Below are positions 14,858 through 37,364 of a DNA stretch of 37,364 bases, piece by piece. Numbering within the stretch: position 1 is the stretch's first letter; each line of letters starts with the position of its first letter. A model generated the notes under the pieces. It ran no database searches, was not told the DNA's origin, and saw nothing but the letters and a program-made list of their open reading frames with translations. Source of the stretch: Hadesarchaea archaeon (GTDB taxonomy: Archaea > Hadarchaeota > Hadarchaeia > Hadarchaeales > Hadarchaeaceae); contig JAPDJH010000010.1 in NCBI GenBank assembly GCA_029259175.1, positions 1 through 37,364 of the forward strand. Direction: 5' to 3'. The position numbers and the translations under genes are program-made.

Positions 14858-14902
14858 CCGACTCAAGTCCCCGCGTCTTGAACTCCGAATCCGTTATAGA
14901 TT

Positions 14903-16986: not shown

Positions 16987-16995
16987 CGATTGACC

Positions 16996-17034
16996 ATTCG
17001 TTTTTGCGAATATAAGTATTTGCTTTTTCGAATA
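16996..17034. promoter_or_regulatory. tandem palindromic operator upstream of the AbiE pair
   Basis: ATTCG-TTTTTG-CGAATA (16996) and ATTTG-CTTTTT-CGAATA (17018) start 22 bp apart and bracket a TTATAT box on the minus strand. Confidence 0.6.
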
Positions 17035-17044
17035 ACTAACCAAA

Positions 17045-23654: not shown

Positions 23655-24893
23655 GTGGGAGTGATCACTCTCTTCGATGGAGGAATCACCTCGGTCCCTG
23701 GTTTTCGCGCTGCCGGGGTGCGAGCAGGCATAAAGCGACGTGGTCTGGATCTCATGTTGATTCATTCGGTGGATGGCGCAGTCCCAGCTGCCGGCGCTTT
23801 CACCACCAATCGTGTGAAGGGGGCGCCAGTGATTCTCACTCAGCGACATCTCAAGGACGGAAAGTTGGGAGCGATTGTGGCCAACTCGGGCAATGCAAAT
23901 GTGTTCACGGGAAAGCGCGGACTGCGAGACGCTCGGCGCATGGCTAGCCTCACCGCAAAATTGCTTGGATTACGAGTGAGCGATGTCGCTGTGGCCTCAA
24001 CGGGTGTGATAGGACGTTATCTCCCTATGCGAGCAGTTGAGCGCGGAATTCGAATGGCGGTAGAGGAGCTATCCGATTCACGCGAGGCGGGTTTAGATGC
24101 GGCTCGCGCCATAATGACAACCGACACCGTGCCCAAAGAGGTCGCCGTAAAAGTTGAGCTCGCAGACGGAAAGATCGCCACTATAGCCGGAATCGCGAAG
24201 GGCTCTGGAATGGTGAACCCTCAGATGCGCACTGCCACTACTCTGACTTTTTTGACTACGGATGCTGCTATCACCGCTCGAGCGCTCAAACGCGCCCTGT
24301 CGCTGACTGTCGATAAAAGTCTCAACATGCTGAACATCGACAACGAAACCAGTACGAGCGACATGGTGCTCATCATGGCCAACGGACGTGCTCGCAACCG
24401 AAAGATCACTCTACAGAGCTACGACCCCAACTTCCAGGAAGGATTGGAGTGCGTGCTCACTCATCTGGCGTGGACGCTCGCGCAAGACGGAGAGGGCGCC
24501 TCTAAGCTCCTAGAGGTTCACATCAGGGGAGCGAAGACTCGAGACGAGGCGAGGATAGCTGCGAAGACCATTGTGGGATCTAATCTCGTGAAGTCAGCGA
24601 TCTTCGGCCGTGATCCCAACTGGGGCCGGGTGGTTGCGGCTTTGGGGTACTCGGGCGCACGTTTTGATCCGAGACGAGTCCGAGTGGGCATTGCCAGTGA
24701 GCGTGGAAGTGTATTGTTGGTTAAGGGTGAGCGGCCTCCCACCCGACGTCAGCTTCAGAGAGCGCGAGATATCCTTCGAAGCCGAGAGGTCGAAATTCAT
24801 GTAGATCTGGGAGTGGGAAAACAGCAGGCGGTTGCGTGGGGGTGTGATCTCACCTATGATTACGTCCGTATAAACTCCAAGTACACGACATGA
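23655..24893 (+). CDS. argJ: ornithine acetyltransferase / bifunctional ArgJ
   Basis: NSGNAN, STGVIG, IMTTDT, AKGSGM, TSTSD (autocleavage region), DGEGA and DPNWGR. Confidence 0.95.
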   Translation: MGVITLFDGGITSVPGFRAAGVRAGIKRRGLDLMLIHSVDGAVPAAGAFTTNRVKGAPVILTQRHLKDGKLGAIVANSGNANVFTGKRGLRDARRMASLTAKLLGLRVSDVAVASTGVIGRYLPMRAVERGIRMAVEELSDSREAGLDAARAIMTTDTVPKEVAVKVELADGKIATIAGIAKGSGMVNPQMRTATTLTFLTTDAAITARALKRALSLTVDKSLNMLNIDNETSTSDMVLIMANGRARNRKITLQSYDPNFQEGLECVLTHLAWTLAQDGEGASKLLEVHIRGAKTRDEARIAAKTIVGSNLVKSAIFGRDPNWGRVVAALGYSGARFDPRRVRVGIASERGSVLLVKGERPPTRRQLQRARDILRSREVEIHVDLGVGKQQAVAWGCDLTYDYVRINSKYTT

Positions 24894-24933
24894 TTTTTCT
24901 AGAAATCGCATAGATTTCGCGGGCAATGAGAGG

Positions 24934-24954
24934 TTAATATTGTGGAGCCTCACT
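24934..24954 (+). promoter_or_regulatory. TATA-like box plus TGTG-N6-CACT site upstream of the DUF134 gene
   Basis: TTAATA-T-TGTGGAGCCTCACT, matching the TGTG-N6-CACA palindrome at 28937. Confidence 0.4.
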
Positions 24955-24972
24955 AAGTTAGATGGGGAGCAG

Positions 24973-25338
24973 ATGTATCAATGGCGTCGGGGGAGGTACA
25001 GAGGACCGGGCAGACCCATGAAGCCTCGGTGGTTGGGGATTCGGCCTACCCCCCTGACCTTCATGCCTTTCGCCGGTCCCGGTGGCCCGCCCATTCCTGC
25101 CCGTGAGCCTGTTTATATGACGTATGATGAGTACGAGGCTTTTCGTTTGATCTACCACGAGGGGCTGAGTCAGGAGGAGGCAGCGCAGCGCATGCGGGTC
25201 TCGCGGGGCACCGTTTGGAGATGCTTGGAGAGCGCGAGGAACAAGATCGCATGCGCTTTGGTCGAGCGTCGTCCACTGGTTATTGCTCCCACTCCGCCTG
25301 CAGGTGAGAAGAACGAGACTGCGGGTAGCTTACGATAA
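24973..25338 (+). CDS. DUF134 (UPF0251) predicted DNA-binding protein
   Basis: GRP.KPR..., DEYEAFRLIYHEGLSQEEAAQRMRVSRGTVWRCLESARNKIACALV. GGGGAG RBS before ATG 24973. Confidence 0.9.
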   Translation: MYQWRRGRYRGPGRPMKPRWLGIRPTPLTFMPFAGPGGPPIPAREPVYMTYDEYEAFRLIYHEGLSQEEAAQRMRVSRGTVWRCLESARNKIACALVERRPLVIAPTPPAGEKNETAGSLR

Positions 25339-25401
25339 CGAGGCTCTGCCAGGATTTTGAGTGAGGCGTGGAAAATTTTGGGAGCCACACGGTTTCAACG
25401 A

Positions 25402-25863
25402 TTATGTGGCCTCTCCCGAGTTTTCGTGCCTGCCGGTCCTAACGAAGTGTTTGTAGCGTTCGATCCACTTTAACCCGGCTGGATTTTTTTGAACGAATTC
25501 CACAAACTTCCTTAATCGATTCATGGTTCTTCGGGTGACCACGTGCTCAATTCTGCACGCATCGATTTCGGCGGTTCTCCAATCCACGCCCAACAGCCTG
25601 AGGAAATCTATCAATGTTTTATGCCTCGTGCTGACTTCCTCGGCAACCCGGATTCCAGCGGCGGTAAGTGAGATATCTCCATACTTTCTATGCTTTACCA
25701 GCCCTTTTCTCTGCAATTTCCCGAGCATCTCCGTGACGCTAGGGGGGCGATGACCCAGAAAGGTAGCTATGTCCGATGTTCTGACTCGCCCCTTCTCCTT
25801 TGTGATAAAGTATATGGCCTCCACATAATCCTCCACACTCGTGCTGAACTTCTTTCTCATCAT
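25402..25863 (-). CDS. DtxR/MntR-family metal-dependent repressor
   Basis: SVEDYVEAIY, PPSVTEML and AEIDACRIEH. Confidence 0.93.
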   Translation of the reverse strand: MMRKKFSTSVEDYVEAIYFITKEKGRVRTSDIATFLGHRPPSVTEMLGKLQRKGLVKHRKYGDISLTAAGIRVAEEVSTRHKTLIDFLRLLGVDWRTAEIDACRIEHVVTRRTMNRLRKFVEFVQKNPAGLKWIERYKHFVRTGRHENSGEAT

Positions 25864-26123
25864 GGGAATCTCCTCCCGATCGGCTTCACGATTACCTTCC
25901 GCGCCATCCCACGACCCATAGCAATCTGCAGTCCATTGCTTTCCACAACCAGTGGACCGCTAGAGGAGGACACCACGCGCAAATAGCACCCTTCTTTGAT
26001 TCCCCGAAGCGCCAGTTTTTGTCTTAAACCCTGTCCTCCTACGATCTGGATTATGACCCCGCCTTCTCCGGGTTTCAGGTCGCTCAGGAGCATCTTCTCA
26101 CGTTTGATTTGTTCTTCTTTCAT
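25860..26123 (-). CDS. feoA: ferrous iron transport protein A
   Basis: LSDLKPGE...LRQKLALRGIKEG...GPLVV...IAMGRGMARKVIV. Confidence 0.9.
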   Translation of the reverse strand: MKEEQIKREKMLLSDLKPGEGGVIIQIVGGQGLRQKLALRGIKEGCYLRVVSSSSGPLVVESNGLQIAMGRGMARKVIVKPIGRRFP

Positions 26124-26131
26124 AAAAAATG

Positions 26132-26184
26132 TTAGGCGCACCGAAAATTTTAAAAACCATGCTTGCAAAATTAGGCATGCCTAA
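26132..26184. promoter_or_regulatory. two DtxR-type operator boxes in the divergent feoA/feoA promoter
   Basis: Perfect palindrome TTAGGCATGCCTAA (26171-26184) and degenerate TTAGGCGCACCGAA (26132-26145) flank an AT-rich TTTTAAAAA. Confidence 0.75.
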
Positions 26185-26196
26185 AGGTGAAAAACG

Positions 26197-26424
26197 ATGA
26201 GAAAAAAACTGTCGGAATTGAAGCCGGGAGAAAGCGCCCGGATAGTCCAGATCGACCCTTCTGTCAAGAGCAGGATTGCAGGGATGGGTATAAGGGCGGG
26301 TGAAAAGGTGAAGCTGGCTTCCAGACAGCCTTTCCGAGGTCCTTTAGTGGTGGTGGTAAAAGGGAGGGAGACTTCGCTGGGAAAATCGCTTGCCAGTCTG
26401 ATCGTGGTAGAGGTGAAGGAATGA
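26197..26424 (+). CDS. feoA: ferrous iron transport protein A
   Basis: LSELKPGE...RIAGMGIRAGEKV...QPFRGPLVV. Confidence 0.9.
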   Translation: MRKKLSELKPGESARIVQIDPSVKSRIAGMGIRAGEKVKLASRQPFRGPLVVVVKGRETSLGKSLASLIVVEVKE

Positions 26425-26960
26425 AAAAGATTCTGCTAGTGGGCAATCCAAACGTGGGCAAATCCGTTATGTTTAGCAGACTCTCCGGCGCGCGAGTCGT
26501 GGTTTCCAATTATCCCGGCACAACAGTGGATTACACGAAGAGCCGCATGCGAGTGGAAGGAAAGGAATATGAGATAGTGGATCTTCCGGGAACTTTCTCC
26601 CTTGAACCGAAAGACAAGGCCGAAGAGGTCGCATGCAAAATGCTGGAGGAAGCGAAGCCTCACACCGCCGCTGTTATCGATGTGATCGACGCAACAGCGG
26701 TAGAGCGGGGCCTGTATCTGACGCTGGAACTGATTGAGAGGGGTTATCCGGTTGTGGTTGCGCTCAACATGTCCGATGCGGCAAGAGACAGGAAAATCAA
26801 GATAGACGTGAAAAAACTGGAGCGAATATTGGGCGTCCCAGTAGTAGAAACCATCGCGACCACTGGGGCGGGACTCAAAGAACTCGTTTCCAAGATCGGC
26901 AAAGCAAAGCCGACGGATATCGAGGCCGTGAAGAGGAGACTTAGGAGGGAGAAAAAGTGA
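26421..26960 (+). CDS. feoB: FeoB N-terminal GTPase domain (stand-alone)
   Basis: GNPNVGKS, NYPGTTVD, DLPG and LNMSD G-motifs. Confidence 0.92.
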   Translation: MKKILLVGNPNVGKSVMFSRLSGARVVVSNYPGTTVDYTKSRMRVEGKEYEIVDLPGTFSLEPKDKAEEVACKMLEEAKPHTAAVIDVIDATAVERGLYLTLELIERGYPVVVALNMSDAARDRKIKIDVKKLERILGVPVVETIATTGAGLKELVSKIGKAKPTDIEAVKRRLRREKK

Positions 26961-28210
26961 AGGCGAAAGCAAGATTGAGCGTGGACGAGCGCTGGGAGCT
27001 TGTCGATGAGATCTCCAAACGGGTTGTTCTGCGGGGAAAATACAAGCACACCCTCAAGGACGTTCTCTCCGACCTGAGCGTCCGTCCGGCCACTGGAATT
27101 CCCTTTATGATTGCCGTTCTGTACGGATTCTGGATGTTCTTTGGCGCCTTTGCCGGATTCTTCACAGACGGGTTGGCCGTGCCGTTTTTCGACGACCACT
27201 ACCTGCCGGCTCTCCAGGGGGCTTTTCCGGGAGCGGGGCCCACCATGGCGGAAAGCAGCCCTCTGTACATGATTTTGGTAGGGGACCCCAATGCGACCAA
27301 TTGTTTCGAAGCCTTCGGCGTTCTGACTTCGGCACTCTTTGTGGCGTTCGGTGTAGTTTTGCCGGCGATAGTCGCGTTCTACCTCATTCTCACCATTCTA
27401 GAGGACTGTGGTTATCTTCCTAGGCTGGCCACTTTGGCGGACACTGTTCTCCACAAGATAGGTCTCCACGGATTCGCGATAGTGCCCACCATTCTGTCTC
27501 TAGGATGTAACGTTCCGGCAGTCTACGGGTGCAGGGTTCTGGAAACTAAAAAGCAACGGTTTATGATGATGACCCTCCTCGGCGTTTTCATTCCGTGTGC
27601 AGCTCAAATCGGCATCATGAGAGAGCTCATTCCCCAGTACACTGGTCTCATACTCATCTACCTTTTCTTTGGGTTTTTTGCGATGGGTGCTCTTCTAAAT
27701 AAACTGATTCCCGGGCGATCTCCAGAAATCCTCATCGATGTCCCTCCCTATCGCTCACCCCAGCGGAGCAACGTGTTGAGGAAACTAGGGTTGCGCGTGA
27801 GACACTTCCTCAAAACAGCGGTTCCCTTCGTGATTCTCGGCGTTGTGGTGGTGAACCTGTTGTACTGGACAGGGGTGATAGATTGGCTGAGCCGAGTGAC
27901 CGAGCCCCTGTTCGTTGTTTGGTTCGGTGTTCCGGCGGCAACAGTGGGGGCGCTGGTGATGGCGTTCATGCGAAAGGACATGGCGGTTGGCATGCTGGGC
28001 GGACTGGCAAGCGCGGGGGTGTTGAGCACCGGTCAGCTGATCACCTCCGTGGTTCTCGTCTCCATATACTTTCCCTGCTTGGCCACCTTCATAATGATCT
28101 GGAAGGAAGGGGGAACGCGAGACCTGCTGAAATCGCTGGGAGTCTTGGCAACATCCTTCTTCGTATTTGGAGGACTCATGCACGCAATAGTGACGCTGGC
28201 GGGGGTTTGA
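26957..28210 (+). CDS. feoB: FeoB membrane domain (stand-alone)
   Basis: LEDCGYLPRLA, LGCNVPA, IPCAAQ, PPYRSP and YFPCLAT gate motifs. Confidence 0.92.
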   Translation: MKAKARLSVDERWELVDEISKRVVLRGKYKHTLKDVLSDLSVRPATGIPFMIAVLYGFWMFFGAFAGFFTDGLAVPFFDDHYLPALQGAFPGAGPTMAESSPLYMILVGDPNATNCFEAFGVLTSALFVAFGVVLPAIVAFYLILTILEDCGYLPRLATLADTVLHKIGLHGFAIVPTILSLGCNVPAVYGCRVLETKKQRFMMMTLLGVFIPCAAQIGIMRELIPQYTGLILIYLFFGFFAMGALLNKLIPGRSPEILIDVPPYRSPQRSNVLRKLGLRVRHFLKTAVPFVILGVVVVNLLYWTGVIDWLSRVTEPLFVVWFGVPAATVGALVMAFMRKDMAVGMLGGLASAGVLSTGQLITSVVLVSIYFPCLATFIMIWKEGGTRDLLKSLGVLATSFFVFGGLMHAIVTLAGV

Positions 28211-28211
28211 G

Positions 28212-28634
28212 ATGAGCGGGTACGCGTTTGCCAAAGTGTATTTTGGAGTGCTTGGCGCGACAATTCTGCTTTTTGGAATTCTCCAGTTCTCCACAGGCCT
28301 TTTCGGGCCTGAACTCTCAGCCGGAATTCTCACAGTCCCCCAAGACGTGTGGAGCGGGCTCATCCTGTTTTTTGCTGGTCTCTTCGTAATCGACGGGGCC
28401 CTCAAGCTCCACGACATTCATGGGCTTGGAAAAGCAGTAATGGGGTCGATTATGCTGTGGATCGTCGCCGGGTGTGATATCTTCGCTAGAATAATGACTC
28501 CGATCTTCGGCGAGGAGGGATGGGTGAACGCGCCAAATGGCTTTCTGAGCGTGTTCGAGCCCCCCTATGCCCCGGCGTTGTTTTTGCTTCCCTTTTCGCT
28601 GCTCATAGTGCACTTCATGAGAAAGTCCGGGTGA
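28212..28634 (+). CDS. hypothetical 4-TM membrane protein in the feo operon
   Basis: Four hydrophobic segments and tight coupling to feoB. Confidence 0.75.
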   Translation: MSGYAFAKVYFGVLGATILLFGILQFSTGLFGPELSAGILTVPQDVWSGLILFFAGLFVIDGALKLHDIHGLGKAVMGSIMLWIVAGCDIFARIMTPIFGEEGWVNAPNGFLSVFEPPYAPALFLLPFSLLIVHFMRKSG

Positions 28635-28641
28635 GAAGGCG

Positions 28642-28899
28642 ATGATAAAGAAAGTTTTGCGCAGGATCAGGGAAGGGGGTGAGATGAGCACGGTGGCGCG
28701 GGATCTCGGTCTTGAGCGAGGCACCCTTCAAGCAATTCTTGAGATGGCAGTGAAGGAAGGGTATGTGGAGAAAGTGGAGCCCGCGTTGGGATGCGCTAAT
28801 TGTTCTTTCTGGAAGACGTGCGTGCAGCGAGGCGAGCAAGCTGAGAAAGCGAGGATGCATGTTTTGACACCCAAAGGGGAGGAATTCGCAAACACTTGA
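28642..28899 (+). CDS. FeoC-like winged-helix protein
   Basis: wHTH (VARDLGL...LEMAVKEGYVEK) with CANC...C in the wing. Last gene of the feo operon. Confidence 0.75.
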   Translation: MIKKVLRRIREGGEMSTVARDLGLERGTLQAILEMAVKEGYVEKVEPALGCANCSFWKTCVQRGEQAEKARMHVLTPKGEEFANT

Positions 28900-28923
28900 A
28901 ACGGCAAAAGCAAACCGAAAGTC

Positions 28924-28950
28924 TTTTATAGGATTATGTGCAATAGCACA
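28924..28950 (+). promoter_or_regulatory. TATA box plus palindromic operator TGTGC-AATA-GCACA
   Basis: TTTTATA at 28924-28930 and palindrome at 28937-28950, just before the Trp-rich gene. Confidence 0.6.
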
Positions 28951-28968
28951 AATTGAAGGTGGTCCAGC

Positions 28969-29232
28969 ATGTGGTGGCCTTGGTATGGTTGGGGCAGAGG
29001 CTGGGGCGGACGCGGATGGTTCGGTCCCTGGCCAGGCAGAGGTCCTTTCAGCTACCTGCCTCCGTGGCTGAGACCAGGATGGCTATTCGGCAGAGGCGCC
29101 TGCTGGTGGCTCTTCGGTCCATGGGCGACCTGGTGGGGATACCCGTTGACGTACAGCTACTGGTACCCCTGGGCGTACAGTTACTGGTACCCGTGGATTT
29201 ATAGCTACGGCGTACCCTATCTCTACTGGTGA
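28969..29232 (+). CDS. Trp/Tyr/Gly/Pro-rich small protein (DUF5320-associated type)
   Basis: RBS-like AAGGTGG and a promoter upstream. GRGPFSYLPPWLRPGWLFGRGACWW segment and 24-bp repeats encoding YSYWYPW. Confidence 0.75.
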   Translation: MWWPWYGWGRGWGGRGWFGPWPGRGPFSYLPPWLRPGWLFGRGACWWLFGPWATWWGYPLTYSYWYPWAYSYWYPWIYSYGVPYLYW

Positions 29233-29242
29233 GGTGACAGCG

Positions 29243-29545
29243 ATGTGGTGGTGGCCACGGGGATGGCGCTGGATGTGGTTCATGAACCCGTACGCGATGT
29301 ACCCGGTATATCCACAAACCCAGCAGCCCACACAGACGGCCCAGCAACCGGCTCAACAGACTCCGGTCGCACCCTACTATCCTCCAGCTCCAGTGTTCTT
29401 TCCTCCACCGCCTCCACCCGAGCAGGAACTTGAAATGTTGGAGGCCTACAAAGCTGAGCTGGAAGAGGAGCTCAAAGGGATCGAGGCGCGGATAAAGGAG
29501 CTGAAAGATCAGCTGGGGAAGAGTTCGTCCTCTAGCGGGACGTGA
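29243..29545 (+). CDS. DUF5320-like protein (low-complexity N-terminus, C-terminal coiled coil)
   Basis: GAGGTG RBS and EQELEMLEAYKAELEEELKGIEARIKELK. Confidence 0.8.
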   Translation: MWWWPRGWRWMWFMNPYAMYPVYPQTQQPTQTAQQPAQQTPVAPYYPPAPVFFPPPPPPEQELEMLEAYKAELEEELKGIEARIKELKDQLGKSSSSSGT

Positions 29546-29549
29546 TCCG

Positions 29550-29900
29550 GTGAAGCTGAAGATAGCGGTGGCAAGCCGGGGCACCCAGGGGTTAGCAGAT
29601 GAAGTTCCGGAGGTATTCGGAAGAGCCAAGATGTTCACAATCATCGAGGTGGAAGACGGAAAAATCAAGCGAGTAGAGAGCGTGGAGAATCCAGCCGCGA
29701 CTTACGAGTACGGTGCGGGCCCCATTGCCATCAAGTTCCTGGCGGACCTGGGCGTCGGGGTGGCGGTGGGCGCCGAATTCGGAGTGGGTGTTTCCACTCT
29801 GTTGGCTGACAAGAACATCAGGACCGTGAGGGCGCCTCCAGGGACAAAAGTTGGAGATGTCGTAGACAAGATTATAAGAGAGGCGGTTCAAGAGGGATAG
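29550..29900 (+). CDS. NifB/NifX-family (FeMo-cofactor-binding fold) protein
   Basis: KIAVAS...VFGRAKMFTIIEVE...VENPA...GAG. Confidence 0.9.
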   Translation: MKLKIAVASRGTQGLADEVPEVFGRAKMFTIIEVEDGKIKRVESVENPAATYEYGAGPIAIKFLADLGVGVAVGAEFGVGVSTLLADKNIRTVRAPPGTKVGDVVDKIIREAVQEG

Positions 29901-29906
29901 AGCCTT

Positions 29907-30761
29907 ATGAGAATAGCGATCCCTTCCAACAGGCCTGGAGGACTAGAGGCGACGGTTTCTCCACATTTCGGTCGATGCGAGGTGTTCACCTTGGTGGAAA
30001 TCAAGGACGGGAAAATCGCGAAAGTCGAAGTGATGGAGAACCAAGGAGTCCATTCTGGTTACGGACAGACACCTGCCGAGATTCTGGCATCTCGGGGGGT
30101 CGATGCAATTCTGGCGCAAGGGATGGGTCCCAAAGCCATGCAGCTTTTTGCCCAGCGCGGGATAGCGGTTTACATGACTTCAGCCAAGACTGTGGACGAG
30201 GCAGTGAAGGAGATCTTGGAAGACAGGGCAAAACTAGCATCGCTGGAGGACGCCTGTCGAGAAGCTCATGGTTTTGAGCCGCCAGCACCTGCTTTCCCCC
30301 CCATGACGGGGTTCGGGATGGGACGAGGAATGGGCAGAGGGATGGGGAGAGGGCTCGGTCCCTTTGGCTTCCCGCCCATGCCCCCTTACCCGCCAGCCCG
30401 ACCGCCGTCTCCTCCTTCCGGGAGATTCAAGGTCGCTGTAGCCAGCCAAGGGCGGGGAGGATTGGACGATCTCGTTTCCCCCATGTTCGGGAGGGCGCCG
30501 AGTTTCACTCTGGTGGAAGTGGAAGGAAACGAAATCAAGGGAGTACGTGTTTTGCCCAACCAGATGATCTCGGCCCCCAGCGGGGTTGGAATCGCAATTA
30601 CTCAGATGTTGGCCAACGAGGGTGCGAGCTATCTGGTTGCCGGGAGGTTTGGCCCCAACGCCACAGCTGTGGCCGCCCAGTTCGGTATCCAGACCGTCAT
30701 GGTTCCCCCGGGGATCAAGGTGAGAGACGCTGTTTTGCAGTACGTGCTGAAATCCCGCTGA
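29907..30761 (+). CDS. tandem two-domain NifB/NifX-family protein with Gly-Met-Gly-Arg/Pro linker
   Basis: HFGRCEVF and MFGRAPSF domains joined by GFGMGRGMGRGMGRGLG. Confidence 0.9.
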   Translation: MRIAIPSNRPGGLEATVSPHFGRCEVFTLVEIKDGKIAKVEVMENQGVHSGYGQTPAEILASRGVDAILAQGMGPKAMQLFAQRGIAVYMTSAKTVDEAVKEILEDRAKLASLEDACREAHGFEPPAPAFPPMTGFGMGRGMGRGMGRGLGPFGFPPMPPYPPARPPSPPSGRFKVAVASQGRGGLDDLVSPMFGRAPSFTLVEVEGNEIKGVRVLPNQMISAPSGVGIAITQMLANEGASYLVAGRFGPNATAVAAQFGIQTVMVPPGIKVRDAVLQYVLKSR

Positions 30762-30770
30762 GGTGAACCC

Positions 30771-31670
30771 TTGAAAGAAATCGTGGTGGCTAGCGGAAAG
30801 GGGGGAGTGGGTAAGACTACGGTGGCCTCCTCGCTCGCCGTGTACTTGGCCAAGAACGGAAAGCGTGTTTATACAGCGGACGTTGACGTCGACGCACCCG
30901 ATTTGCTCTTGGCGTTGGGCGGCGGGAAGGAGACTCTCTTTTCTATGGAAGTGCAGGCCTCGAAGAAAGCCAAGGTGGACCAAGAGAAGTGTGTGGGGTG
31001 CTGGAGATGCGTGGAGATCTGTCCGTTCGGGGCGATGCTGAAATCCCCCAGCGGAAAGGCGGCTGTTGCCACTCTCATGTGCGAGGGATGTGGGGTCTGC
31101 AAACTTGTTTGCCCGGCGGACGCGATCACGGTGGAAAAAGCAGAGACCGGGAGAATAACGATTGAAAGAACGAAATACGGTTTTGAGTGTGTGACCGGAA
31201 AGCTGAAGCTTGGCGAGCACAACTCGGGCCTTTTGGTTTCTCACATCAGAAACCTGGCTCGAAGGAAGGCTCAGGATGCGGGGTGCAAAGCCGTAATCGT
31301 GGATGCGGCCCCAGGAATAGGGTGCCCAGTGATAGCTTCGGTCACGGGCGCGGATTACGTCATCGCGGTGACCGAGCCCACCCCGGCTGCCAAGAGGAAT
31401 TTTGAAAGGCTCTCAAGAGTGGTAAAGCACTTCCAGGTGCCGGCGGGTGTCGTGATAAACATGGCGGGGTACTCCAAGGATTTTGAGAGTGCTCTCAGGA
31501 AGTGGGCGGTGGGCGAGCTGGGTTTCCAGTTTCTCGGCGAGGTTCCGGTGGATCGCGAGGTCGTCAAAGCGTTGGTCCAGATGAAGCCGATCATCGACTT
31601 CAATCCCGAAGCCGAGGCATCCAAGGCTTTGCTGGAAATTGCCAAACGGGTGGAGAGTGAAGTCCTGTGA
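30771..31670 (+). CDS. MinD-superfamily P-loop ATPase with inserted 2x[4Fe-4S] ferredoxin (COG1149-type)
   Basis: SGKGGVGKT, DVDVD, CVGCWRCVEICP, CEGCGVCKLVCP, PGIGCP and VTEPT. Confidence 0.92.
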   Translation: MKEIVVASGKGGVGKTTVASSLAVYLAKNGKRVYTADVDVDAPDLLLALGGGKETLFSMEVQASKKAKVDQEKCVGCWRCVEICPFGAMLKSPSGKAAVATLMCEGCGVCKLVCPADAITVEKAETGRITIERTKYGFECVTGKLKLGEHNSGLLVSHIRNLARRKAQDAGCKAVIVDAAPGIGCPVIASVTGADYVIAVTEPTPAAKRNFERLSRVVKHFQVPAGVVINMAGYSKDFESALRKWAVGELGFQFLGEVPVDREVVKALVQMKPIIDFNPEAEASKALLEIAKRVESEVL

Positions 31671-32593
31671 AGGAGCTGAGGAAAAAACCGGTCGAGACTC
31701 CCATAATCGCCGTGACCGGAGGGAAGGGCGGGACCGGAAAGAGCACTGTGGCGGTGAATCTGGCAGCGGGGTTGAGCGCCAGGGGGCTGAAGGTAATGCT
31801 TGTGGATGTGGATGTGGACGGGCCCAGCTGTGCAACGCTGCTCGGGGTGCGGCTCGAAGGGGGTGAGGAGGTCAAGACGTTTGTCCCCAAGATTGAAGCC
31901 TCCAAATGCACGGGGTGCAGAAGGTGTGTGGAGATTTGTCCCGAACACGCGTTGGTGGGGCTCCAGGGACAGGTTCCCAAACTTTTCGAAGAATTGTGTT
32001 CTGGGTGTAAGGCCTGCCAGCTGGTCTGCGAGCCGAAAGCGATTGAAAATGGGTGGAAAAAAATTGGAAACATCTACACCCACAGGACAAATGGTTTGGG
32101 GTTGATCGTCGGCGAGCTGAGACCCACTGAGCCGAGATCCCCTGTGATGGCTCGCGCCACAGTGATGAAAGCCCTCGAAGAGCTGAAAACCCATAAGTAT
32201 GATGTGGCAATCCTCGACACCGCTCCCGGGGTTCACAACGCCGTGGCCCAGCCGCTCTGGGTCGCCGATCTGGCTCTGGCGGTGACCGAGCCTACGCCGC
32301 TGGGCACGCATGATCTGAACTTTATCCTAGACCTCGCTCGAGAACTGGGCTTACCGGCCGAAGTAGTTCTGAACAAGGCCGATATCCCGGGCGGGTTGAG
32401 GGAGGAGGCTCTGAGACTTGCGCGTGAGCGGGGAGTGGAGGTGGTGGCTGAGATTCCTTTGGACACCGAACTCTTGCGTTCTTACATGGCAGGCGAGCCT
32501 CTCGTAAAAGTCAATCCGGCTTCACCTGCTGGGAGAGCCCTAGGGGCTTTGATCCAGAAGATCGAAAGTAGATTGAAGGGAGGTGAGGTGTAG
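31667..32593 (+). CDS. second MinD-superfamily ATPase with inserted ferredoxin (COG1149-type)
   Basis: GGKGGTGKS, CTGCRRCVEICP, CSGCKACQLVC and VTEPTPLG.HDL. Confidence 0.92.
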   Translation: MKELRKKPVETPIIAVTGGKGGTGKSTVAVNLAAGLSARGLKVMLVDVDVDGPSCATLLGVRLEGGEEVKTFVPKIEASKCTGCRRCVEICPEHALVGLQGQVPKLFEELCSGCKACQLVCEPKAIENGWKKIGNIYTHRTNGLGLIVGELRPTEPRSPVMARATVMKALEELKTHKYDVAILDTAPGVHNAVAQPLWVADLALAVTEPTPLGTHDLNFILDLARELGLPAEVVLNKADIPGGLREEALRLARERGVEVVAEIPLDTELLRSYMAGEPLVKVNPASPAGRALGALIQKIESRLKGGEV

Positions 32594-32787
32594 TGGCTCA
32601 ACTGTCCGGAAGACCGCCTGTTAAAAGGTTCAGATGCTTCGCGTGCGGAAATGTTGTCGAAGTGCCTCAGGGGGTTCCCAAACCGCCCGCCTGCCCTCGG
32701 TGTGGCGCTCCGGCGGCAATGATTCACAGAATCGATAAGGGGCCGCCCGGTGGAAGGCGAGGTGGAGGGCCACGCTGGACGCGGTGA
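32593..32787 (+). CDS. small zinc-ribbon/rubredoxin-like protein with Gly-Arg tail
   Basis: CFACG...CPRCG, GAGGTG RBS and coupled overlaps with both neighbours. Confidence 0.75.
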   Translation: MAQLSGRPPVKRFRCFACGNVVEVPQGVPKPPACPRCGAPAAMIHRIDKGPPGGRRGGGPRWTR

Positions 32788-33101
32788 GTGAGATGGCGGA
32801 TGCGGAAAAGATTCGGTTGGAGCTGGCATCGATTCGTCATCCAGAGATAAACGCTTCTTTCAAAGAACTGGGGATGATCGCAGACGTGAGGGTAAAAAAG
32901 AGCACCGCCGTGGTCACGTTGAAATTACCCTTCAAAGAGGTCCCCATACGGGATCTCCTAGTTAAAAAAGTGAAAGATGCCATAAAGCGGATAGACGAAA
33001 ATTTGAAAGTGATGATGAATTTTGAGGAAATGAATGAGAAGGAGAGAAAAAATTTCTTCGGAATAGCCCGAGAACGCTGGACCGGTCTGAGGAAAGAGTG
33101 A
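32784..33101 (+). CDS. DUF59 (FeS assembly P / SufT-like) protein lacking the usual Cys
   Basis: LASIRHPEINASFKELGMI.DV.V N-terminal DUF59 signature. Confidence 0.78.
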   Translation: MSEMADAEKIRLELASIRHPEINASFKELGMIADVRVKKSTAVVTLKLPFKEVPIRDLLVKKVKDAIKRIDENLKVMMNFEEMNEKERKNFFGIARERWTGLRKE

Positions 33102-33105
33102 TGGG

Positions 33106-33957
33106 ATGAAAATCTATCTTGAATGTATCCCGTGCTTTTTAAGGCAAGCTTTGGAAGCGAGCAAAATGGCTACCCGCGATCCAGCTAGGCGGGAACTGGC
33201 GGTTAGGGAAGTCTTGCGTCGACTGGGAAAAATTTCTTTCAGGGATAAGACTCCGCCAGAGATAGGCTACGTGGTACACCGGGTTGTGAGAAAGGTCACA
33301 GGCAACCCAGATCCGTACAAGAAAGTGAAAGATGAATTTAATCGCAAAGCCCAGCGGATGTATCCAAGTCTAAAAGATAAGGTGGAGAAGTCGCGGCACC
33401 GGTTGCTTACGGCCACCAAGATCGCGATTGCTGGGAATATCATTGATTTCGGGCCAACTTCGAAGTTTGACCTCGAGTCCACGATTCGAGAGGTTCTCTC
33501 AAGCGGATTTACCATAGATCACTTCAAGCTCTTTGAGAAAGCCTTGGAAAAGGCGGAAACGGTGGCGTATTTGGGGGACAATGCCGGGGAGATCGTTTTT
33601 GACCGAGTACTTTTAGAAGAGCTGGAGGGGAAACAAATTACATTTGTTGTCAAAGGCGGGCCGCACATCAATGACGCAACTGTTGCGGATGCAAAATTTG
33701 CAGGGATTCACGAGATTGCCGAAATAAAGACGGTGAGCAACGGGGAGCCGGGAACGGGGCCGAGGAGAAATTCTAAACGCTTCATTAGCTGGTTAAAAAC
33801 GCGAGATGTTGTGATAAGCAAGGGGCAGGGGAACTACGAGTCCTTGAGTGAAGCGGATGCCAATATCTTCTTTCTGCTGAGGGTGAAGTGCCCCATGATA
33901 GCCCGCGATATCGGTGCCCCTGTGGGGAGCACCGTTGTCAAGAGCGTGAAAAGATGA
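33106..33957 (+). CDS. DUF89 / ARMT1-like damage-control metal-dependent phosphatase
   Basis: ECIPC, DPY, AGNIIDFG, DNAGEIVFD, INDAT, SKGQGNYESL and VKC. Confidence 0.93.
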   Translation: MKIYLECIPCFLRQALEASKMATRDPARRELAVREVLRRLGKISFRDKTPPEIGYVVHRVVRKVTGNPDPYKKVKDEFNRKAQRMYPSLKDKVEKSRHRLLTATKIAIAGNIIDFGPTSKFDLESTIREVLSSGFTIDHFKLFEKALEKAETVAYLGDNAGEIVFDRVLLEELEGKQITFVVKGGPHINDATVADAKFAGIHEIAEIKTVSNGEPGTGPRRNSKRFISWLKTRDVVISKGQGNYESLSEADANIFFLLRVKCPMIARDIGAPVGSTVVKSVKR

Positions 33958-33982
33958 ACGAGTAACAGTGAGGTGCATCTCT

Positions 33983-34522
33983 ATGAGGATTGTGTATGTT
34001 TCAGGAAGTCCGAGAAAAAACAGCAATACAGATTACCTTTTAAAGTCCGTATTATCGGTAGCTAGTGGGCGATTTGTAAAGCTTTCAGATTACCGAATAG
34101 AGCCTTGCAATTCCTGCAGGACATGCCAAAAGCTAGGTAAGTGTGTAATTGACGATGACATGAGCAACGTTATTCTACCAATGCTCCTGAAGGCCGATGC
34201 GATTGTTTTGGGCAGTCCGGTTTATTTCAATAACGTGTCCGCTCAAACTAAAGCTTTTATGGACCGTACATGGTGTGTTAGGGGACAACTTAGGAACAAG
34301 ATTGGTGGTGCGGTCGTTGTTGGTCGAAGATATGGAATAGAAAGCGCTATCACCGCTATTAATTCATTTTTTCTTAAACATGAAATGATTCCAGCAAACA
34401 GGGGGGTTTGTGGAATAGCCTTTGAAGAAGGGGAAATAATAAAAGATAGAGAAGCCATTGAAGCGGCCAAAAAACTTGGTGAGCGTATAAAGGAACTTGG
34501 AAAAATGAAAGGCACAAAATAA
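33983..34522 (+). CDS. iron-sulfur flavoprotein / flavodoxin-like NADPH-dependent FMN reductase
   Basis: SGSPRKNSNT, CNSCRTC-x5-C, GSPVYF and KAFMDR. Confidence 0.9.
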   Translation: MRIVYVSGSPRKNSNTDYLLKSVLSVASGRFVKLSDYRIEPCNSCRTCQKLGKCVIDDDMSNVILPMLLKADAIVLGSPVYFNNVSAQTKAFMDRTWCVRGQLRNKIGGAVVVGRRYGIESAITAINSFFLKHEMIPANRGVCGIAFEEGEIIKDREAIEAAKKLGERIKELGKMKGTK

Positions 34523-34655
34523 CAAGGGCTGTTTTTTGAGTGAGATAGTTTCGCTCTTTTTTAATCTGGTTGATTTTATCAGAAGAAACAAACTTTATCT
34601 TTTGTGTCATTGCTATAAATAGAGGTGTAAAGAATGAAAATTTTCTGATTTTCGG

Positions 34656-36219
34656 CCTATTTAGGCACTACACAGCCAAACTTCTTGAATATCTTCCTCT
34701 GCTCTTTGCTCACCCCCACGACCACGGAGGTTGTATCGTAGAGCTTCTTTTTCACTATCCTAAGCATGAGGAAAGCTTCGGCGAGTGACATCGACAGCTT
34801 CACTTGCTTCAGCTGCAGGAGGAGGCAGAGCGAGATGAACATCAGGAGCACGTAGGCCCAAACCCCGTCCTCTCGGTGGACCCTCGCAGGGAGGAGCTCG
34901 AGGTCCGTCTTGAGGTATCTGAAGTGCTTCTCGATTGTGTCCCTCGAGTAGTAGAGGTCGAGAGCCTCCGCGCAACTCATTCGCTTCGTCGAGAGGAGAA
35001 CCATCGTCTCCTTTCTTCTCAGCTCCTTCATCCTGACCTTCCGGTGCTTGAACTCCACGAACCTGCCCCCCGACCCTTCACTTTCGCCTCCTGCCTCTGA
35101 GGTACGCGGCCCTCTCCAGGATCTCCGAGGACAGCTTCTTTTCCTCTCTCGCCTTCCGCTCCGGGTTGAGCATCACATAAGCATAGAGTGGGATTCCCCC
35201 AACTCTCACTCTCTCCACGACGCCGAAGTGAGGGGTGCCATTGAACATGAACGCGTTCGAGGGGGTCTGGATCCGCGGGACGGTTTTCTCGATCAGCGCT
35301 TCGAACAGCGCGGTCATGGCGGGGAGCCCGATGATGAACCCTGTCCTTCTATCCCTCATCCTTTCTAGGTTTTCGGCCGAAAAGAAGCCCCTGTCGAGCA
35401 CTAGGAAAGGGTTTGGAGATTTTGTACGCCGCTATCTCACGGAGGGTTCCGTCGAGCACCACGACGTTCGTCGCATTCCCTAGCACGAGCTTGAAGAACA
35501 GGGGGAAGCGGGTGTTTCTGTCCGAAACCAGGAACAGTCCAATCTTGTGCTCGATGCCGCTGTCCGCATAGCTCCAGGGTGTGAGCATGGAAGAAATCAG
35601 GGTCGGCATCGCTGTGAGGTCCATCAGAAGAGTGGACGCGGCCGACGCGTACTTTTTCAGGTACGACTGGAGAAGCCCCTCCACGCTTTCGGGTTTCCCG
35701 ATCTCGGCGAGCGTGTCTGTGATGTTCTGAGAGGTAAGCTGCGAGAGGTCTCCCTCCTCCCTCAGCGCGCTAGTGGACACCCAGTAGTAGAGGAACTTCA
35801 GCGGCAGTGGTTGGATAATCCGGTTGAAAACGAATGTCTTCACGAAGAAGGAATGCCGTGGGAAGGACGACTTGACCAGCTCTTCCAAGCCGGAACTTCG
35901 GTACAGGTGGGAAAAAGGAGGTGGACGTCCCCGAGGTCCAGGATCGCCTTCTCCTCGTTCTTCCGGTACAGAACCTTCTCGAATTTCCCCCGCTCCTTAT
36001 CGATGACCTTCCGGAGATACTTCGATTTCTGAACCGCCTTTCCGGTTTTGGGATCCCGGTAGGTCCTAGCCTGATAGACGTAGAGGTTCCGGCCACCCGT
36101 TTGAACCTGATGTACCTTATTTGGTAGTGCTAATTACCACTACATAAGCTTTTTTGGTTTTCAAAAAATGCGTTATTTGACCTAGGAAACGTGAAATTTG
36201 ACGTAGTGCCTAAGTCAGG
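34656..36219 (-). mobile_element. IS1634-family insertion sequence with multiply frameshifted transposase
   Basis: Fragments YIRFKR / YVYQARTYRDPKTGKAVQKSKYL, LLMDLT, DRGFFSAEN and YYSRDTIEKHFRYLK lie in different frames. Inverted ends TTAGGCACTAC (34661-34671) / GTAGTGCCTAA (36203-36213). Confidence 0.85.
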
Positions 36220-36238
36220 CGGAAATCAGGAAGTTGGG

Positions 36239-36676
36239 TCATATTAAAATTGGATACAAAAGTGTGAGTAAAGCATAAATGTAAAGAATAAAAGTAGCCC
36301 AATTTAACATTTTTTTCCATCGCTCTTTGTGAATAGAAAATTGTGTTAACAATAATACCAAGCTTAAAGTGAATGCTTGCGCCGATAAATGCCAAATCTT
36401 TCCCCTCATACTTCATTGTGTTGATTGATTGGCGTATTGGATTGTAAGGTCTAGATATTTTTCAGACTGTTCTTTTACAGCTTCGTTTTCTCGGTTTTCC
36501 AAAGATAATTGATAATGAGCAAGCCAAAGAGTTCTATAAAGTTCACCTTTTGTTTGGAAATCACTTGCCATAGTGTTAGCCACCATACCACAACATAGTG
36601 CAAAGAAGGCTGATACTGCGATAGTAAATGCCATGCCTCCCGTGAAGAATTTTTCTAGTTTTAACTCAAATCTCAT
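36239..36676 (-). pseudogene. 3-TM membrane protein gene interrupted by one in-frame TGA (36413-36415)
   Basis: Reading through the stop in the same frame gives SMRGKIWHLSAQAFTLSLVLLLTQF...WATFILYIYALLTLLYPILI*, i.e. two more TM helices. Confidence 0.6.
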
Positions 36677-36886
36677 CTACTACTTATTTTCAAATTTTGA
36701 ACTAAAACTTTACGAACATATCAAAAAGAGCGTGATAATGCTGATATACACAAAAAGGTGAAGAAAGAGAATTCATTCGATGGGGTGAATGATGAATTTC
36801 TTTTAAAATATAGATAATAAAGATTGCACCCTCCGGCTTTGTTTCAAACTCGGGAGATAATTTTAGCCGAGAACTCTTGAAGTAAG

Positions 36887-37200
36887 TTGGAGGTTGGACC
36901 CGAGGCGATAGTCAAGGAGGGGAAATCCACGACCAAGCCCCGGTGCCGATTCTGCAAATCGGCAGATGTAGTTAAGGCGGGCAAGCGGTATAACCGTTTC
37001 GGTGAAAAGCAGCATTGGCTGTGCAAAGCCTGTAACAGGCGCTTCACCCCCGATGACGGCTTCTTAAGCCTATGGTACAGCAAGCACACGGTGGTCGAGG
37101 CCATAGACCTCCACTACGAGGGGCTCTCAACGCACTAGGTCGAGAGGCACTTCAAGCGATACCACAGGGCACACTCGCGCTGGACGACCATGTGGCGCTG
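36887..37200 (+). pseudogene. IS6/IS1-like transposase N-terminal fragment (zinc ribbon + HTH) with premature stop
   Basis: CRFCKSADVVKAG...QHWLCKACNRRF...EAIDLHYEGLS, TAG at 37136-37138, then VERHF...SRWTTMWR before homology is lost. Confidence 0.8.
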
Positions 37201-37237
37201 CCCGGTCCTTTACCGCTCCAACTCGATTTAGCACCCA

Positions 37238-37364
37238 TCACACCACCTTCACGTAGAGGGTGTTCGAATAGGTGCCGGGCGGGACGGACGGGATGGTCAG
37301 GAACCAGTAAACATACTTTTGAACACCCTCACCCCACTCCACGTTTGAGTAGAGGGGTTGCCCG
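37238..37364 (-). CDS. 3' end of a probable surface/exported beta-rich protein (partial)
   Basis: Minus strand reads GQPLYSNVEWGEGVQKYVYWFLTIPSVPPGTYSNTLYVKVV*, a typical terminal L.IP...PGTY..T strand pattern. Confidence 0.55.
   Translation of the reverse strand, partial: GQPLYSNVEWGEGVQKYVYWFLTIPSVPPGTYSNTLYVKVV

Follow-up and report, generated by a model that had tools for sequence, protein, structure and literature searches.

Contig JAPDJH010000010.1 of a Hadesarchaea archaeon metagenome-assembled genome (MAG; 1.31 Mb in 23 contigs, 90.9% complete) was analyzed over its entire length of 37,364 bp, which we refer to as the window (contig C10 of this genome). Between positions 24940 and 34522 it carries a gene for a DUF134 helix-turn-helix protein, a DtxR/Feo iron-uptake unit and, next to it, an operon encoding NifX domains and two ferredoxin-bearing MinD-like ATPases, hereafter the NifX/ATPase operon. 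The genes are tightly coupled, their families are conserved across phyla, and two separate, conserved control sites lie among them. We read the locus as the Hadarchaeota version of an ORP/IssA-type module, placed behind the only Feo importer of the cell, that would store or deliver iron sulfide under the control of ATP and electrons; we regard the chances of this functional reading as evenly balanced.

Gene families were assigned with Pfam at the family cut-off scores, with NCBIfam as a supplement. From the start of feoA (26197) to the stop codon of a flavoprotein gene (34522) all genes lie on the plus strand and are separated by gaps of -4 to +10 nucleotides (nt), the sole larger gap being one of 69 nt ahead of a gene for a Trp-rich protein, the first of the ten genes of the NifX/ATPase operon:

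28969..29232, plus strand: Trp/Gly/Arg-rich protein of 87 residues (aa); no family above cut-off, conserved gene
29234..29545, plus strand: DUF5320-type protein with a Trp-rich N-terminus, a Pro-rich middle and a C-terminal coiled coil (DUF5320, PF17253, 27.0 bits)
29550..29900, plus strand: NifX1, single-domain NifX/IPR003731 protein, MTH1175-like (Nitro_FeMo-Co 49.3 bits)
29907..30761, plus strand: double NifX-domain protein with a Pro-rich linker of GMGRG repeats (two Nitro_FeMo-Co stretches, 137.3 bits)
30771..31670, plus strand: ATPase 1, MinD-like, with an inserted 2x[4Fe-4S] ferredoxin domain, of the Orp3/Orp4 type (ParA/MinD-type, two Fer4 stretches)
31667..32593, plus strand: ATPase 2, MinD-like, with a ferredoxin insert (ParA/MinD-type, two Fer4 stretches)
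32593..32787, plus strand: Cys4 protein of 64 aa, CxxC...CxxC with an Arg/Gly tail, zinc-ribbon or rubredoxin-like (sub-threshold matches; zinc ribbon 26.2 bits vs cut-off 34.4)
32784..33101, plus strand: DUF59 (FeS_assembly_P) protein (29.0 bits, cut-off 23.5)
33106..33957, plus strand: DUF89/ARMT1-like damage-control phosphatase (228.2 bits)
33968..34522, plus strand: iron-sulfur-flavoprotein-like FMN reductase (FMN_red 85.2 bits; CNSCRTCQKLGKC motif, CxxCxxCx5C)
34538..34556, plus strand: hairpin followed by a T-run, from a consensus scan alone

The hairpin and T-run likely mark the end of the operon. A first-pass annotation of this DNA had listed the same genes here and in the Feo unit, and all of them are present at their places, although a feoC label was not supported. 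The annotation had also reported that nif structural genes are missing. This agrees with our searches, in which the NifD/K family (PF00148) had no match in the window or in the 90.9%-complete genome, and matched three of 14 control genomes, exactly those expected. NifB is likewise not in the genome, whose only NifX domains are the three in the window. A search for the NifH family was set aside as uninformative, as it yielded only MinD-like genes in this genome and matches in all 14 controls.

The gene set recurs in Archaea and Bacteria

We compared the window with loci annotated by a custom open reading frame (ORF) caller and iterated hidden Markov models. Scanning one genome per species gave 80 loci, 28 of which (L024-L051) encode full-length ferredoxin-ATPases and were kept as a diverse set; the other 52 (L052-L103) are P-loop-only matches or other MinD/Mrp genes and were excluded from all synteny counts. 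Twelve further loci form an order-level set, so that the window and these 40 loci make 41 sources. The archaeal part of the diverse set includes, among others, Methanomethylicota, Thermoprotei, Bathyarchaeia, Thermoplasmatota, Methanosarcinales, Methanobacterium and Thermococci, and the bacterial part includes Clostridia, Bacillota, Dehalococcoidia, Anaerolineae, Bacteroidota, Spirochaetes, Zixibacteria and Desulfobacterota-type MAGs, among others. The closest named homologs of the ATPase come from Candidatus Hadarchaeum and Hadesarchaea MAGs. Counted within 6 kb of the ferredoxin-ATPases, the genes recur as follows:

Tandem ferredoxin-ATPase pair: 26/28 diverse loci (the other two cut by contig ends), 12/12 order-level loci
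NifX: 26/28 diverse, 12/12 order-level
Mrp-type ATPase: 14/28 diverse, 6/12 order-level
Cys4 protein: 11/28 diverse, 4/12 order-level
DUF5320: 8/28 diverse, 11/12 order-level
DUF134: 7/28 diverse, 8/12 order-level
Feo/DtxR: 4/28 diverse, 4/12 order-level
DUF89: 3/28 diverse, 2/12 order-level
Trp-rich ORF: 2/28 diverse, 6/12 order-level

DUF89 adjoins the cluster in L026, L028, L043, L107 and L108, and DUF59 does so in two loci besides the window (L036 and L046). Pfam searches of 93 hand-picked ORFs, out of 223 chained unassigned ones, added MBL-fold proteins (13 loci), DUF364/DUF4213 (six), radical SAM proteins (six), NifU_N (two) and DUF1847 (two) to the neighborhood. One locus from a Clostridia MAG (L026:4328-11805) reads, on a single strand, DtxR-FeoA-FeoB-Fur-DUF5320-NifX-NifX-ATPase-ATPase-DUF89, a logic near-identical to that of the window.

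These counts bear out the view of the first-pass annotation that the genes form a recurring anaerobe set. Its further description of the set as uncharacterized was not supported as it stood: both the ORP (orange protein) complex (PMC6345978) and IssA (PMC5524996) are in print. In gene content, the core of the recurring set is the published ORP complex of Desulfovibrio. In Desulfovibrio vulgaris Hildenborough, Orp3 and Orp4 are described as MinD-like proteins that each bear a pair of [4Fe-4S] ferredoxin motifs, Orp8 as a NifX/Di-Nase protein, Orp5 as a small [2Fe-2S] protein and Orp9 (MrpORP) as an Mrp-Di-Nase fusion; His-tagged Orp3 co-purified with Orp4 and Orp8, to which MrpORP is reported to hand Fe-S (PMC6345978). 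By position, the 64-aa Cys4 protein of the window would be the analog of Orp5. The physiological role of ORP is still called unclear in print (PMC8359166).

NifX domains and accompanying small proteins

The best solved relative of NifX1 is MTH1175 (1eo1, E = 5.7e-12), and the orange protein structure (2wfb) is a weaker match (E = 0.0066). MTH1175 is treated as an IssA-type protein in the paper describing Pyrococcus furiosus IssA (PF2025), in which an IPR003731 domain is followed by a Pro-rich segment and then by a cationic Trp/Gly/Arg tail; IssA is reported there to store Fe and S as thioferrate nanoparticles and to rebuild ferredoxin clusters (PMC5524996). An IssA homolog has already been scored in one of two Hadesarchaeota genomes (PMC8351635). 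Among Thermococci we found eight distinct proteins in which a NifX domain carries a tail that is Pro-rich at its start and Trp-rich at its end and contains GWGRG repeats and one Cys. Sequence identity between the three window domains and the NifX domains of five of these tail-bearing IssA-like proteins is 33-47% (E 1e-14 to 1e-31), with NifX1 at 33-40% and the domains of the double-NifX protein at 35-47%; the window domains are thus as close to the Thermococci domains as to one another.

Three parts of the operon, namely the Trp-rich ORF, the DUF5320 protein and the linker of the double-NifX protein, have a Trp/Gly/Arg chemistry like that of IssA tails. The Thermococci tails contain 5-12 W, 12-20 G, 9-13 R+K, 0-2 D+E and one Cys (isoelectric point, pI, 11.2-11.6). 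The Trp-rich ORF contains 19 W, 15 G, 5 R/K, no D/E and one Cys (pI 9.5), and the 65-aa linker has 16 P, 12 G and 6 R/K (pI 9.3). The DUF5320 assignment stands exactly at the cut-off of 27 and covers only profile positions 62-99, that is, the C-terminal coiled coil. The canonical DUF5320 proteins of L026, L036 and L046 combine GRGWGRG-type repeats with a coiled coil.

Homologs of the Trp-rich ORF occur in nine of the 41 sources, and a search of 1.84 billion proteins retrieved 44 representative clusters of relatives (E <= 0.001). Most of these are 70-150 aa long, carry the N-terminal motif of the Trp-rich ORF, are Pro-rich in the middle and end in a coiled coil, by which 12 of 16 scanned members match DUF5320 at E <= 1, three of them above the cut-off; the Trp-rich ORF itself has no DUF5320 match in Pfam. 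As its relatives carry the DUF5320 C-terminus, the window gene is the N-terminal module of a DUF5320 subfamily encoded as a gene of its own. The split between the two genes is present in all related loci, with an analogous split in family f4, and its recurrence with different spacing shows that it is not a frameshift. A literature search returned nothing relevant on DUF5320 or COG1149 and nothing functional was apparent on DUF134/UPF0251/PF02001.

Kinship with the ORP complex raises an alternative to iron storage or delivery, namely that the NifX proteins hold a Mo/W-Cu-sulfide or other non-iron metal-sulfide cluster and serve a redox-dependent process such as cell division, with iron needed only to mature the Fe-S subunits of the complex itself. 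The architecture common to orp3-orp4-orp5 and orp8, the match of NifX1 to the orange protein structure, a MoeA gene adjoining the cluster in L040, and the published morphology or division phenotype with its 'cell division' label (PMC6345978, PMC8359166) all speak for it. However, NifX1 is far closer to MTH1175 than to ORP, the operon contains no gene for Mo/W or Cu transport or for a corresponding cofactor while iron genes recur beside the cluster, and the cell-division role of orp is called a hypothesis by its own papers (PMC8359166). We consider a non-iron cluster of this kind unlikely and retain iron-sulfide storage or delivery as the preferred reading.

The ferredoxin-ATPase pair

ATPase 1 and ATPase 2 are 34% identical, and each contains CxxCxxCxxxC twice and a deviant Walker A motif. 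The residues invariant in ATPase 1 include the deviant Walker A, the eight ferredoxin Cys and a D178...C185 pair, in which Cys185 lies in PGIGCPV; in ATPase 2 the Cys-less sequence GVHNAV takes the place of GIGCPV. The GxxCPV Cys is lost from the partner ATPases of Hadarchaeota family f1 (VHNAVA/IHNVVA), and most bacterial partners retain it (TSCPVI). The loss in the partner ATPase suggests an asymmetric dimer in the Hadarchaeota lineage. An AlphaFold2 model of ATPase 1 (pLDDT 90.4) is nearest in fold to FlhG/FleN/MinD and next to NifH, and a search of solved structures found none that covers the ferredoxin-ATPase architecture. A complex prediction for ATPase 1, ATPase 2 and NifX1 from our own alignments (score 0.01, mark 0.32) was used neither for nor against an interaction. 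The idea, raised in the first-pass annotation, that the paired ATPases act as a heterodimeric scaffold draws on the paralogy of the two proteins and, by analogy, on the published co-purification of Orp3, Orp4 and Orp8.

The Feo unit and the NifX/ATPase operon have separate control sites

The iron-uptake unit upstream of the operon, the DUF134 gene and the control sites are arranged as follows:

24940..25338, plus strand: DUF134 (UPF0251) helix-turn-helix protein (DUF134 64.2 bits; sigma-70 region-4-like helix-turn-helix matches; TTG start uncertain)
25402..25863, minus strand: DtxR-family iron-dependent repressor (Fe_dep_repress 67.8 bits, Fe_dep_repr_C 64.4 bits)
25860..26168, minus strand: FeoA-domain protein, co-oriented with dtxR (FeoA 52.9 bits; the match begins at residue 26 of the longest ORF)
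26171..26184, no strand: perfect palindrome TTAGGCATGCCTAA, ending 12 nt before the feoA ATG; candidate DtxR operator
26197..26424, plus strand: FeoA (69.7 bits)
26421..26960, plus strand: FeoB GTPase domain as a separate polypeptide (FeoB_N 183.9 bits)
26957..28210, plus strand: FeoB membrane part (Gate 94.5 bits, FeoB_C 28.8 bits)
28212..28634, plus strand: hydrophobic membrane protein of 140 aa after feoB; no Pfam or NCBIfam family above cut-off
28642..28899, plus strand: winged-helix-like protein of 85 aa with three Cys, in a FeoC-like position; no family above cut-off
28924..28951, no strand: TATA-like box (28924-28930) and palindrome ATGTGCAATAGCACA (28936-28950) in the 69-nt gap ahead of the Trp-rich gene

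By Pfam, the window encodes FeoA together with both the GTPase and the membrane domains of FeoB, and this FeoB is the one true FeoB of the genome, which contains a single strong FeoB_N match. The protein is split into a GTPase polypeptide of 179 aa and a membrane polypeptide of about 415 aa whose genes overlap by 4 nt. An identical split (179 aa and 414 aa) in a relative (G034, L106:4786-6566) shows that this is not an assembly error. The start of the minus-strand FeoA gene is more likely the ATG at 26121-26123. A homolog of the 140-aa protein was found behind feoB in L106 alone, and the 85-aa protein has no homolog across the 40 loci. The feoC label given to the latter in the first-pass annotation was rejected, as the protein reaches only 13.6 bits with FeoC (E = 0.078, cut-off 21) and matches other helix-turn-helix families equally weakly.

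The TTAGGCATGCCTAA site is the only perfect copy of TTAGG-N4-CCTAA in the whole 1.3-Mb genome. L106, L107 and L108 have the same box ahead of feoA or dtxR, and resembling boxes were found in L051 and L026 (a Methanobacterium and a Clostridia MAG). This distribution fits a DtxR operator. The palindrome ahead of the Trp-rich gene is of a different kind: TGTGC-N4-GCACA occurs once in the genome, at ATGTGCAATAGCACA, and a TATA box with a palindrome of this type precedes the Trp-rich gene by 17-41 nt in all seven sources with sequence there (the window, L105-L109 and L041, a Thermoprotei MAG included). The same palindrome type lies ahead of the first genes in L029, L030, L032 and L049. A strict 16-nt pattern, ATGnnC-N4-GnnCAT with complementary arms, matched five times in 615,364 bp of loci (shuffle mean 0.48, maximum 3). 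Each of the five sites, which come from Zixibacteria, Bacteroidota, Thermoprotei and a deltaproteobacterial MAG, is followed after 8-90 nt by the opening gene of such an operon, be it DUF134, NifX or the Trp-rich gene. A relaxed scan was noisy (30 matches, shuffle mean 17.2), and the strict pattern alone was kept for statistics. A sigma-70 promoter scan of the window was set aside as not meaningful for an archaeon.

We thus predict that the region from 28924 to 28951 is the promoter and operator of the NifX/ATPase operon itself. DUF134 is probably the regulator that binds the ATGTGC-N4-GCACA operator, as its co-occurrence with the set suggests, because it is the only DNA-binding protein that travels with it. 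Judged from their sequences, the Feo unit and the NifX/ATPase operon lie side by side, have different operators and are not regulatorily merged, although transcription may read through from feo into the operon. The first-pass annotation had described the operon as physically merged with a DtxR-controlled Feo system; DtxR control holds for feo, with its TTAGGCATGCCTAA box, and not for the NifX/ATPase operon, which has a TATA box of its own and a different palindrome. Metatranscriptome contigs cover positions 24800-34800 of the window in patches at a depth of 2-4.5 (four runs, one sample, one study), and two of them (X1, 28472-29018; X2, 28866-29064) span the junction between feo and the Trp-rich gene. 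They were not taken as evidence of co-transcription, since a contig does not prove that one transcript spans the junction and carried-over DNA may be its source.

Adjacency of the iron genes to the cluster recurs. Feo/DtxR also flanks the cluster in L106, L107, L108 and L112 of the Hadarchaeota order, in varied gene orders, and in Clostridia, Methanobacterium, Thermoprotei and Saccharibacteria-labelled MAGs; in a Clostridia MAG a Fur gene sits between feoB and DUF5320. In two of three Thermococci regions examined, L158 and L159 (genomes G045 and G081), a tandem ferredoxin-ATPase pair is located about 5 kb away from IssA-like tailed genes, and a DUF134 gene is found within 12 kb. The main text of the IssA paper contains none of the terms operon, adjacent, ATPase, Mrp and gene cluster (PMC5524996). 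In Methanococcus voltae growing on pyrite, FeoAB, DtxR and two IssA homologs are reported to rise together (PMC8516115).

The separate promoters and operators would also fit the view that the Feo unit and the NifX/ATPase operon came to be neighbors through chance or local rearrangement, without any functional link. In 24 of the 28 diverse loci, as in L105 and L109, no Feo adjoins the cluster, and gene order around the cluster differs among the window, L106 and L107/L108. On the other hand, the adjacency is found again in a Clostridia, a Methanobacterium, a Thermoprotei and a Saccharibacteria-labelled MAG and, with different gene orders, in three further genomes of the Hadarchaeota order, and co-induction of Feo, DtxR and IssA homologs is reported in M. 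voltae (PMC8516115). We regard chance neighborhood as very unlikely.

Accessory genes and a second locus

The DUF89 protein reaches 193.6 bits with the NCBIfam model damage_ctl_Phtase, under its equivalog cut-off of 440, and the compact N-terminal four-Cys motif (CxxCxxCx5C) of the flavoprotein matches what we take to be the hallmark of Isf. These two genes favor a role in Fe-S repair or iron-sulfide detoxification, in which the module would sequester stray iron sulfide and repair oxidized clusters under redox stress. Rubrerythrin, thioredoxin and CoA-disulfide-reductase-like genes beside relatives point the same way, as do the detoxification reading of IssA (PMC8219758) and the report that orp genes are switched off as the redox potential rises (PMC8359166). 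The Isf-like gene, however, lies beside the cluster in the window only and DUF59 in the window and just two loci, L036 and L046, and repair or detoxification departs from storage or delivery mainly in purpose, not in mechanism. We consider it quite improbable as the function of the module, and storage or delivery of iron sulfide remains our preferred reading.

A second locus of the same genome (G000:C3:29580-35074, also L161:580-6074) encodes an MBL-fold protein, two DUF5320 proteins (27.2 and 25.2 bits), a B12-radical SAM protein, an Mrp/NUBPL ATPase (323 bits), DUF1847 and a radical SAM protein. A TATA box and ATTATGTGCATATGC, a half-palindrome of the operon type, precede its first DUF5320 gene. 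Gene types of this locus are joined to the cluster in f4 relatives, which, together with the shared promoter type, indicates that the module is bipartite in this genome. The NifX/ATPase operon and the second locus probably form one regulon, to judge from these promoter sequences.

The radical SAM genes bring in a further alternative, the biosynthesis of a complex metallocofactor in the manner of NifB/NifH/NifX, in which a radical SAM enzyme builds the cofactor, NifX carries it and NifH-like ATPases reduce or insert it. It draws support from the neighbors of the cluster elsewhere (the radical SAM, MBL-fold, DUF364/DUF4213 and DUF1847 genes counted above), from the presence of such genes behind the same operator type at the second locus, from the modeled fold of ATPase 1, which also resembles NifH, and from its invariant Cys185, seven residues past the Walker B Asp178, a spacing that we take to equal that of NifH Asp125 and Cys132. 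Against it, the genome-wide PF00148 search found no NifEN/NifDK-like scaffold or target enzyme, the radical SAM genes lie outside the operon, and no candidate for a cofactor-dependent enzyme is linked to it. Such a pathway is improbable in our view. Under the preferred reading, storage or delivery of iron sulfide, the second locus would instead contribute a carrier.

The Fe-S background of the genome was also surveyed. The SufB/SufD core (PF01458) was not found in the 90.9%-complete genome and is present in 30 of 41 related genomes, and IscU is flanked by two cysteine desulfurases at C2:182994-187157. The idea that the cluster substitutes for the missing SUF system was dropped, because most cluster-bearing relatives have the SufB/D core and the genome has IscU and two desulfurases.

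A predicted iron-sulfide storage or delivery module

The mechanism that we propose begins with DtxR, which would repress Feo at the TTAGGCATGCCTAA box, and with Fe(II) imported by Feo. NifX domains would bind inorganic iron sulfide, and acid-free Trp/Gly/Arg- and Pro-rich segments would wrap or nucleate the anionic iron-sulfide material, in cis through the double-NifX linker and in trans through the Trp-rich protein, DUF5320 and the tail of the Cys4 protein, with the DUF5320 coiled coil lending multivalency. The two MinD-type ATPases, bearing two [4Fe-4S] clusters each, would form a nucleotide-switched dimer like that of Orp3 and Orp4 and use ATP and low-potential electrons to load Fe-S units or release them reductively. 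Released units could pass to carriers, namely DUF59 and the Mrp/NUBPL-type ATPase of the second locus, with an accessory redox role for the flavoprotein and accessory damage control for DUF89. Transcription of the operon would start at a promoter of its own and be governed by a dedicated regulator that acts at ATGTGC-N4-GCACA, DUF134 being the likeliest candidate. The first-pass annotation had pictured an uncharacterized, iron-fed metallocluster machine. Fe-S storage or delivery is indeed the best reading and the iron genes recur, but the machine is not wholly uncharacterized.

Several observations weigh against this reading. None of the three window NifX domains carries a C-terminal Pro-rich, cationic Trp-Gly-Arg tail, and the tail-like parts of the window are less cationic than IssA tails (pI 9.3-9.5 vs 11.2-11.6). 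Composition-corrected BLASTP between IssA-like tails and DUF5320 or the Trp-rich ORF gave no significant similarity (E = 8.7 and 5.2), and the DUF5320 profile run on five IssA-like proteins returned E = 0.18 and 0.49 for two and no match for three; the likeness to the IssA tail is hence one of chemistry only, and a claim of homology was dropped. The Desulfovibrio orange protein is reported to bind a Mo-Cu sulfide cluster, and the sole reported orp phenotype concerns cell morphology or division (PMC6345978, PMC8359166). In Pyrococcus, thioferrate-like iron is described as forming without IssA too, and detoxification has been proposed over storage (PMC8219758). The tandem ATPase pair occurs in 13 of 41 same-order genomes, the window's own counted, and in none of three same-genus genomes, and a cluster so patchy in close relatives must be dispensable. 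The link to iron genes is real but is a minority feature, and with a separate promoter Feo and the NifX/ATPase operon need not be co-regulated. Lastly, L032 has the palindromic site, yet no DUF134 was detected in that locus.

A bolder form of the reading, which we put forward as doubtful, is that DUF5320 and its Trp-rich offshoots do in trans what the tail does in IssA and, with tail-less NifX proteins and the ATPase pair, build and dissolve an intracellular iron-sulfide store on demand, whether particle or condensate, and that DUF134, as the one dedicated regulator, governs this store across Bacteria and Archaea through ATGnnC-N4-GnnCAT. If true, anaerobes would widely possess an equivalent of ferritin whose gating depends on ATP and electrons, and the puzzles of ORP, IssA, DUF5320 and DUF134 would merge into one system. 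The question bears on how strict anaerobes, which are rich in Fe-S proteins, store and route iron and sulfide. Since 2011 no function has been assigned to the ORP complex, and IssA is known from a single genus; here one DNA stretch unites ORP-type ATPases, IssA-like NifX domains and small proteins with a chemistry like that of the IssA tail (DUF5320 and the Trp-rich protein) beside the iron importer of the cell, and the conserved operator gives DUF134 a testable job.

Other features of the window

The 353-aa MBL-fold gene at 13805-14866 (minus strand) is convergent with a radical SAM gene at 12273-13808 (plus strand). Its product is 43% identical to that of the MBL gene adjoining DUF134 in L106, and the gene may have been moved out of that neighborhood. 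An AbiEii-type nucleotidyltransferase toxin domain is encoded at 15147-16211 (minus strand), followed by family-less ORFs at 16165-17043 and 17045-18199 (minus strand); this stretch, between the MBL gene and the arg genes, may be a defense or toxin-antitoxin island. The genes argG-argH-argC-argJ are located upstream of the DUF134/Feo region. The 626-aa protein encoded at 3600-5480 combines an AN1-type zinc finger at its N-terminus with a PQQ/WD40-like beta-propeller. GC content is lower at 34570-37364 and 7000-9000 (0.40-0.48) than in the operon (about 0.55-0.58), and the ORFs tested at 34570-37362 had no Pfam family.

Comparison with known systems

The uptake unit resembles FeoAB systems controlled by DtxR/IdeR in that a dtxR-family gene diverges from feoA-feoB and a palindromic box lies over the promoter. 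It differs from them in its split FeoB, which is followed by two small proteins without a family.

The two ATPases have a link to Fe-S delivery and the deviant Walker A (GKGGxGK[ST]) that marks the SIMIBI dimer class in common with Mrp/NBP35/Cfd1/ApbC, among which the Nbp35-Cfd1 heterodimer of paralogs is the textbook precedent. Unlike those proteins, they have no CXXC bridging motif and carry a 2x[4Fe-4S] ferredoxin insert instead, and a single invariant Cys after Walker B is found only in ATPase 1. With the NifX/NafY and NifB-NifH maturation systems the module has in common a NifX fold that carries inorganic Fe-S species and a NifH-like P-loop ATPase as partner, whereas the genome lacks both the NifDK/NifEN family and NifB.

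Resemblance to IssA extends to an IPR003731/NifX domain with few or no Cys, to the association of this domain with Pro-rich and Trp/Gly/Arg-rich, acid-free, single-Cys segments, and to the location of Thermococci IssA-like genes near the same ATPase pair and DUF134. In the window, however, the tail chemistry resides in an interdomain linker and in separate small proteins rather than in a C-terminal fusion, and the thioferrate particles are those reported for Pyrococcus IssA.

With the ORP complex the locus shares tandem paralogous MinD-like ATPases bearing two [4Fe-4S] ferredoxin motifs each, single-domain NifX/Di-Nase protein(s), a small Cys-rich protein after the ATPases and a confinement to anaerobes; an archaeal origin of ORP has already been suggested in print (PMC6345978, PMC8359166). 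The Mrp-NifX fusion is missing from the window, all of whose proteins score 31-88 bits with the MrpORP model NF041136 against a cut-off of 450. In place of sigma-54/OrpR control, with no enhancer-binding-protein (EBP) gene in the window, there are DUF134, a TATA box and a palindromic operator. The window further has a double NifX protein with an Arg-Gly linker and adds Trp-rich/DUF5320, DUF59, DUF89 and Isf-like genes and an adjacent Feo system. A physical complex of the ATPases with a NifX-type protein is known for Desulfovibrio only.

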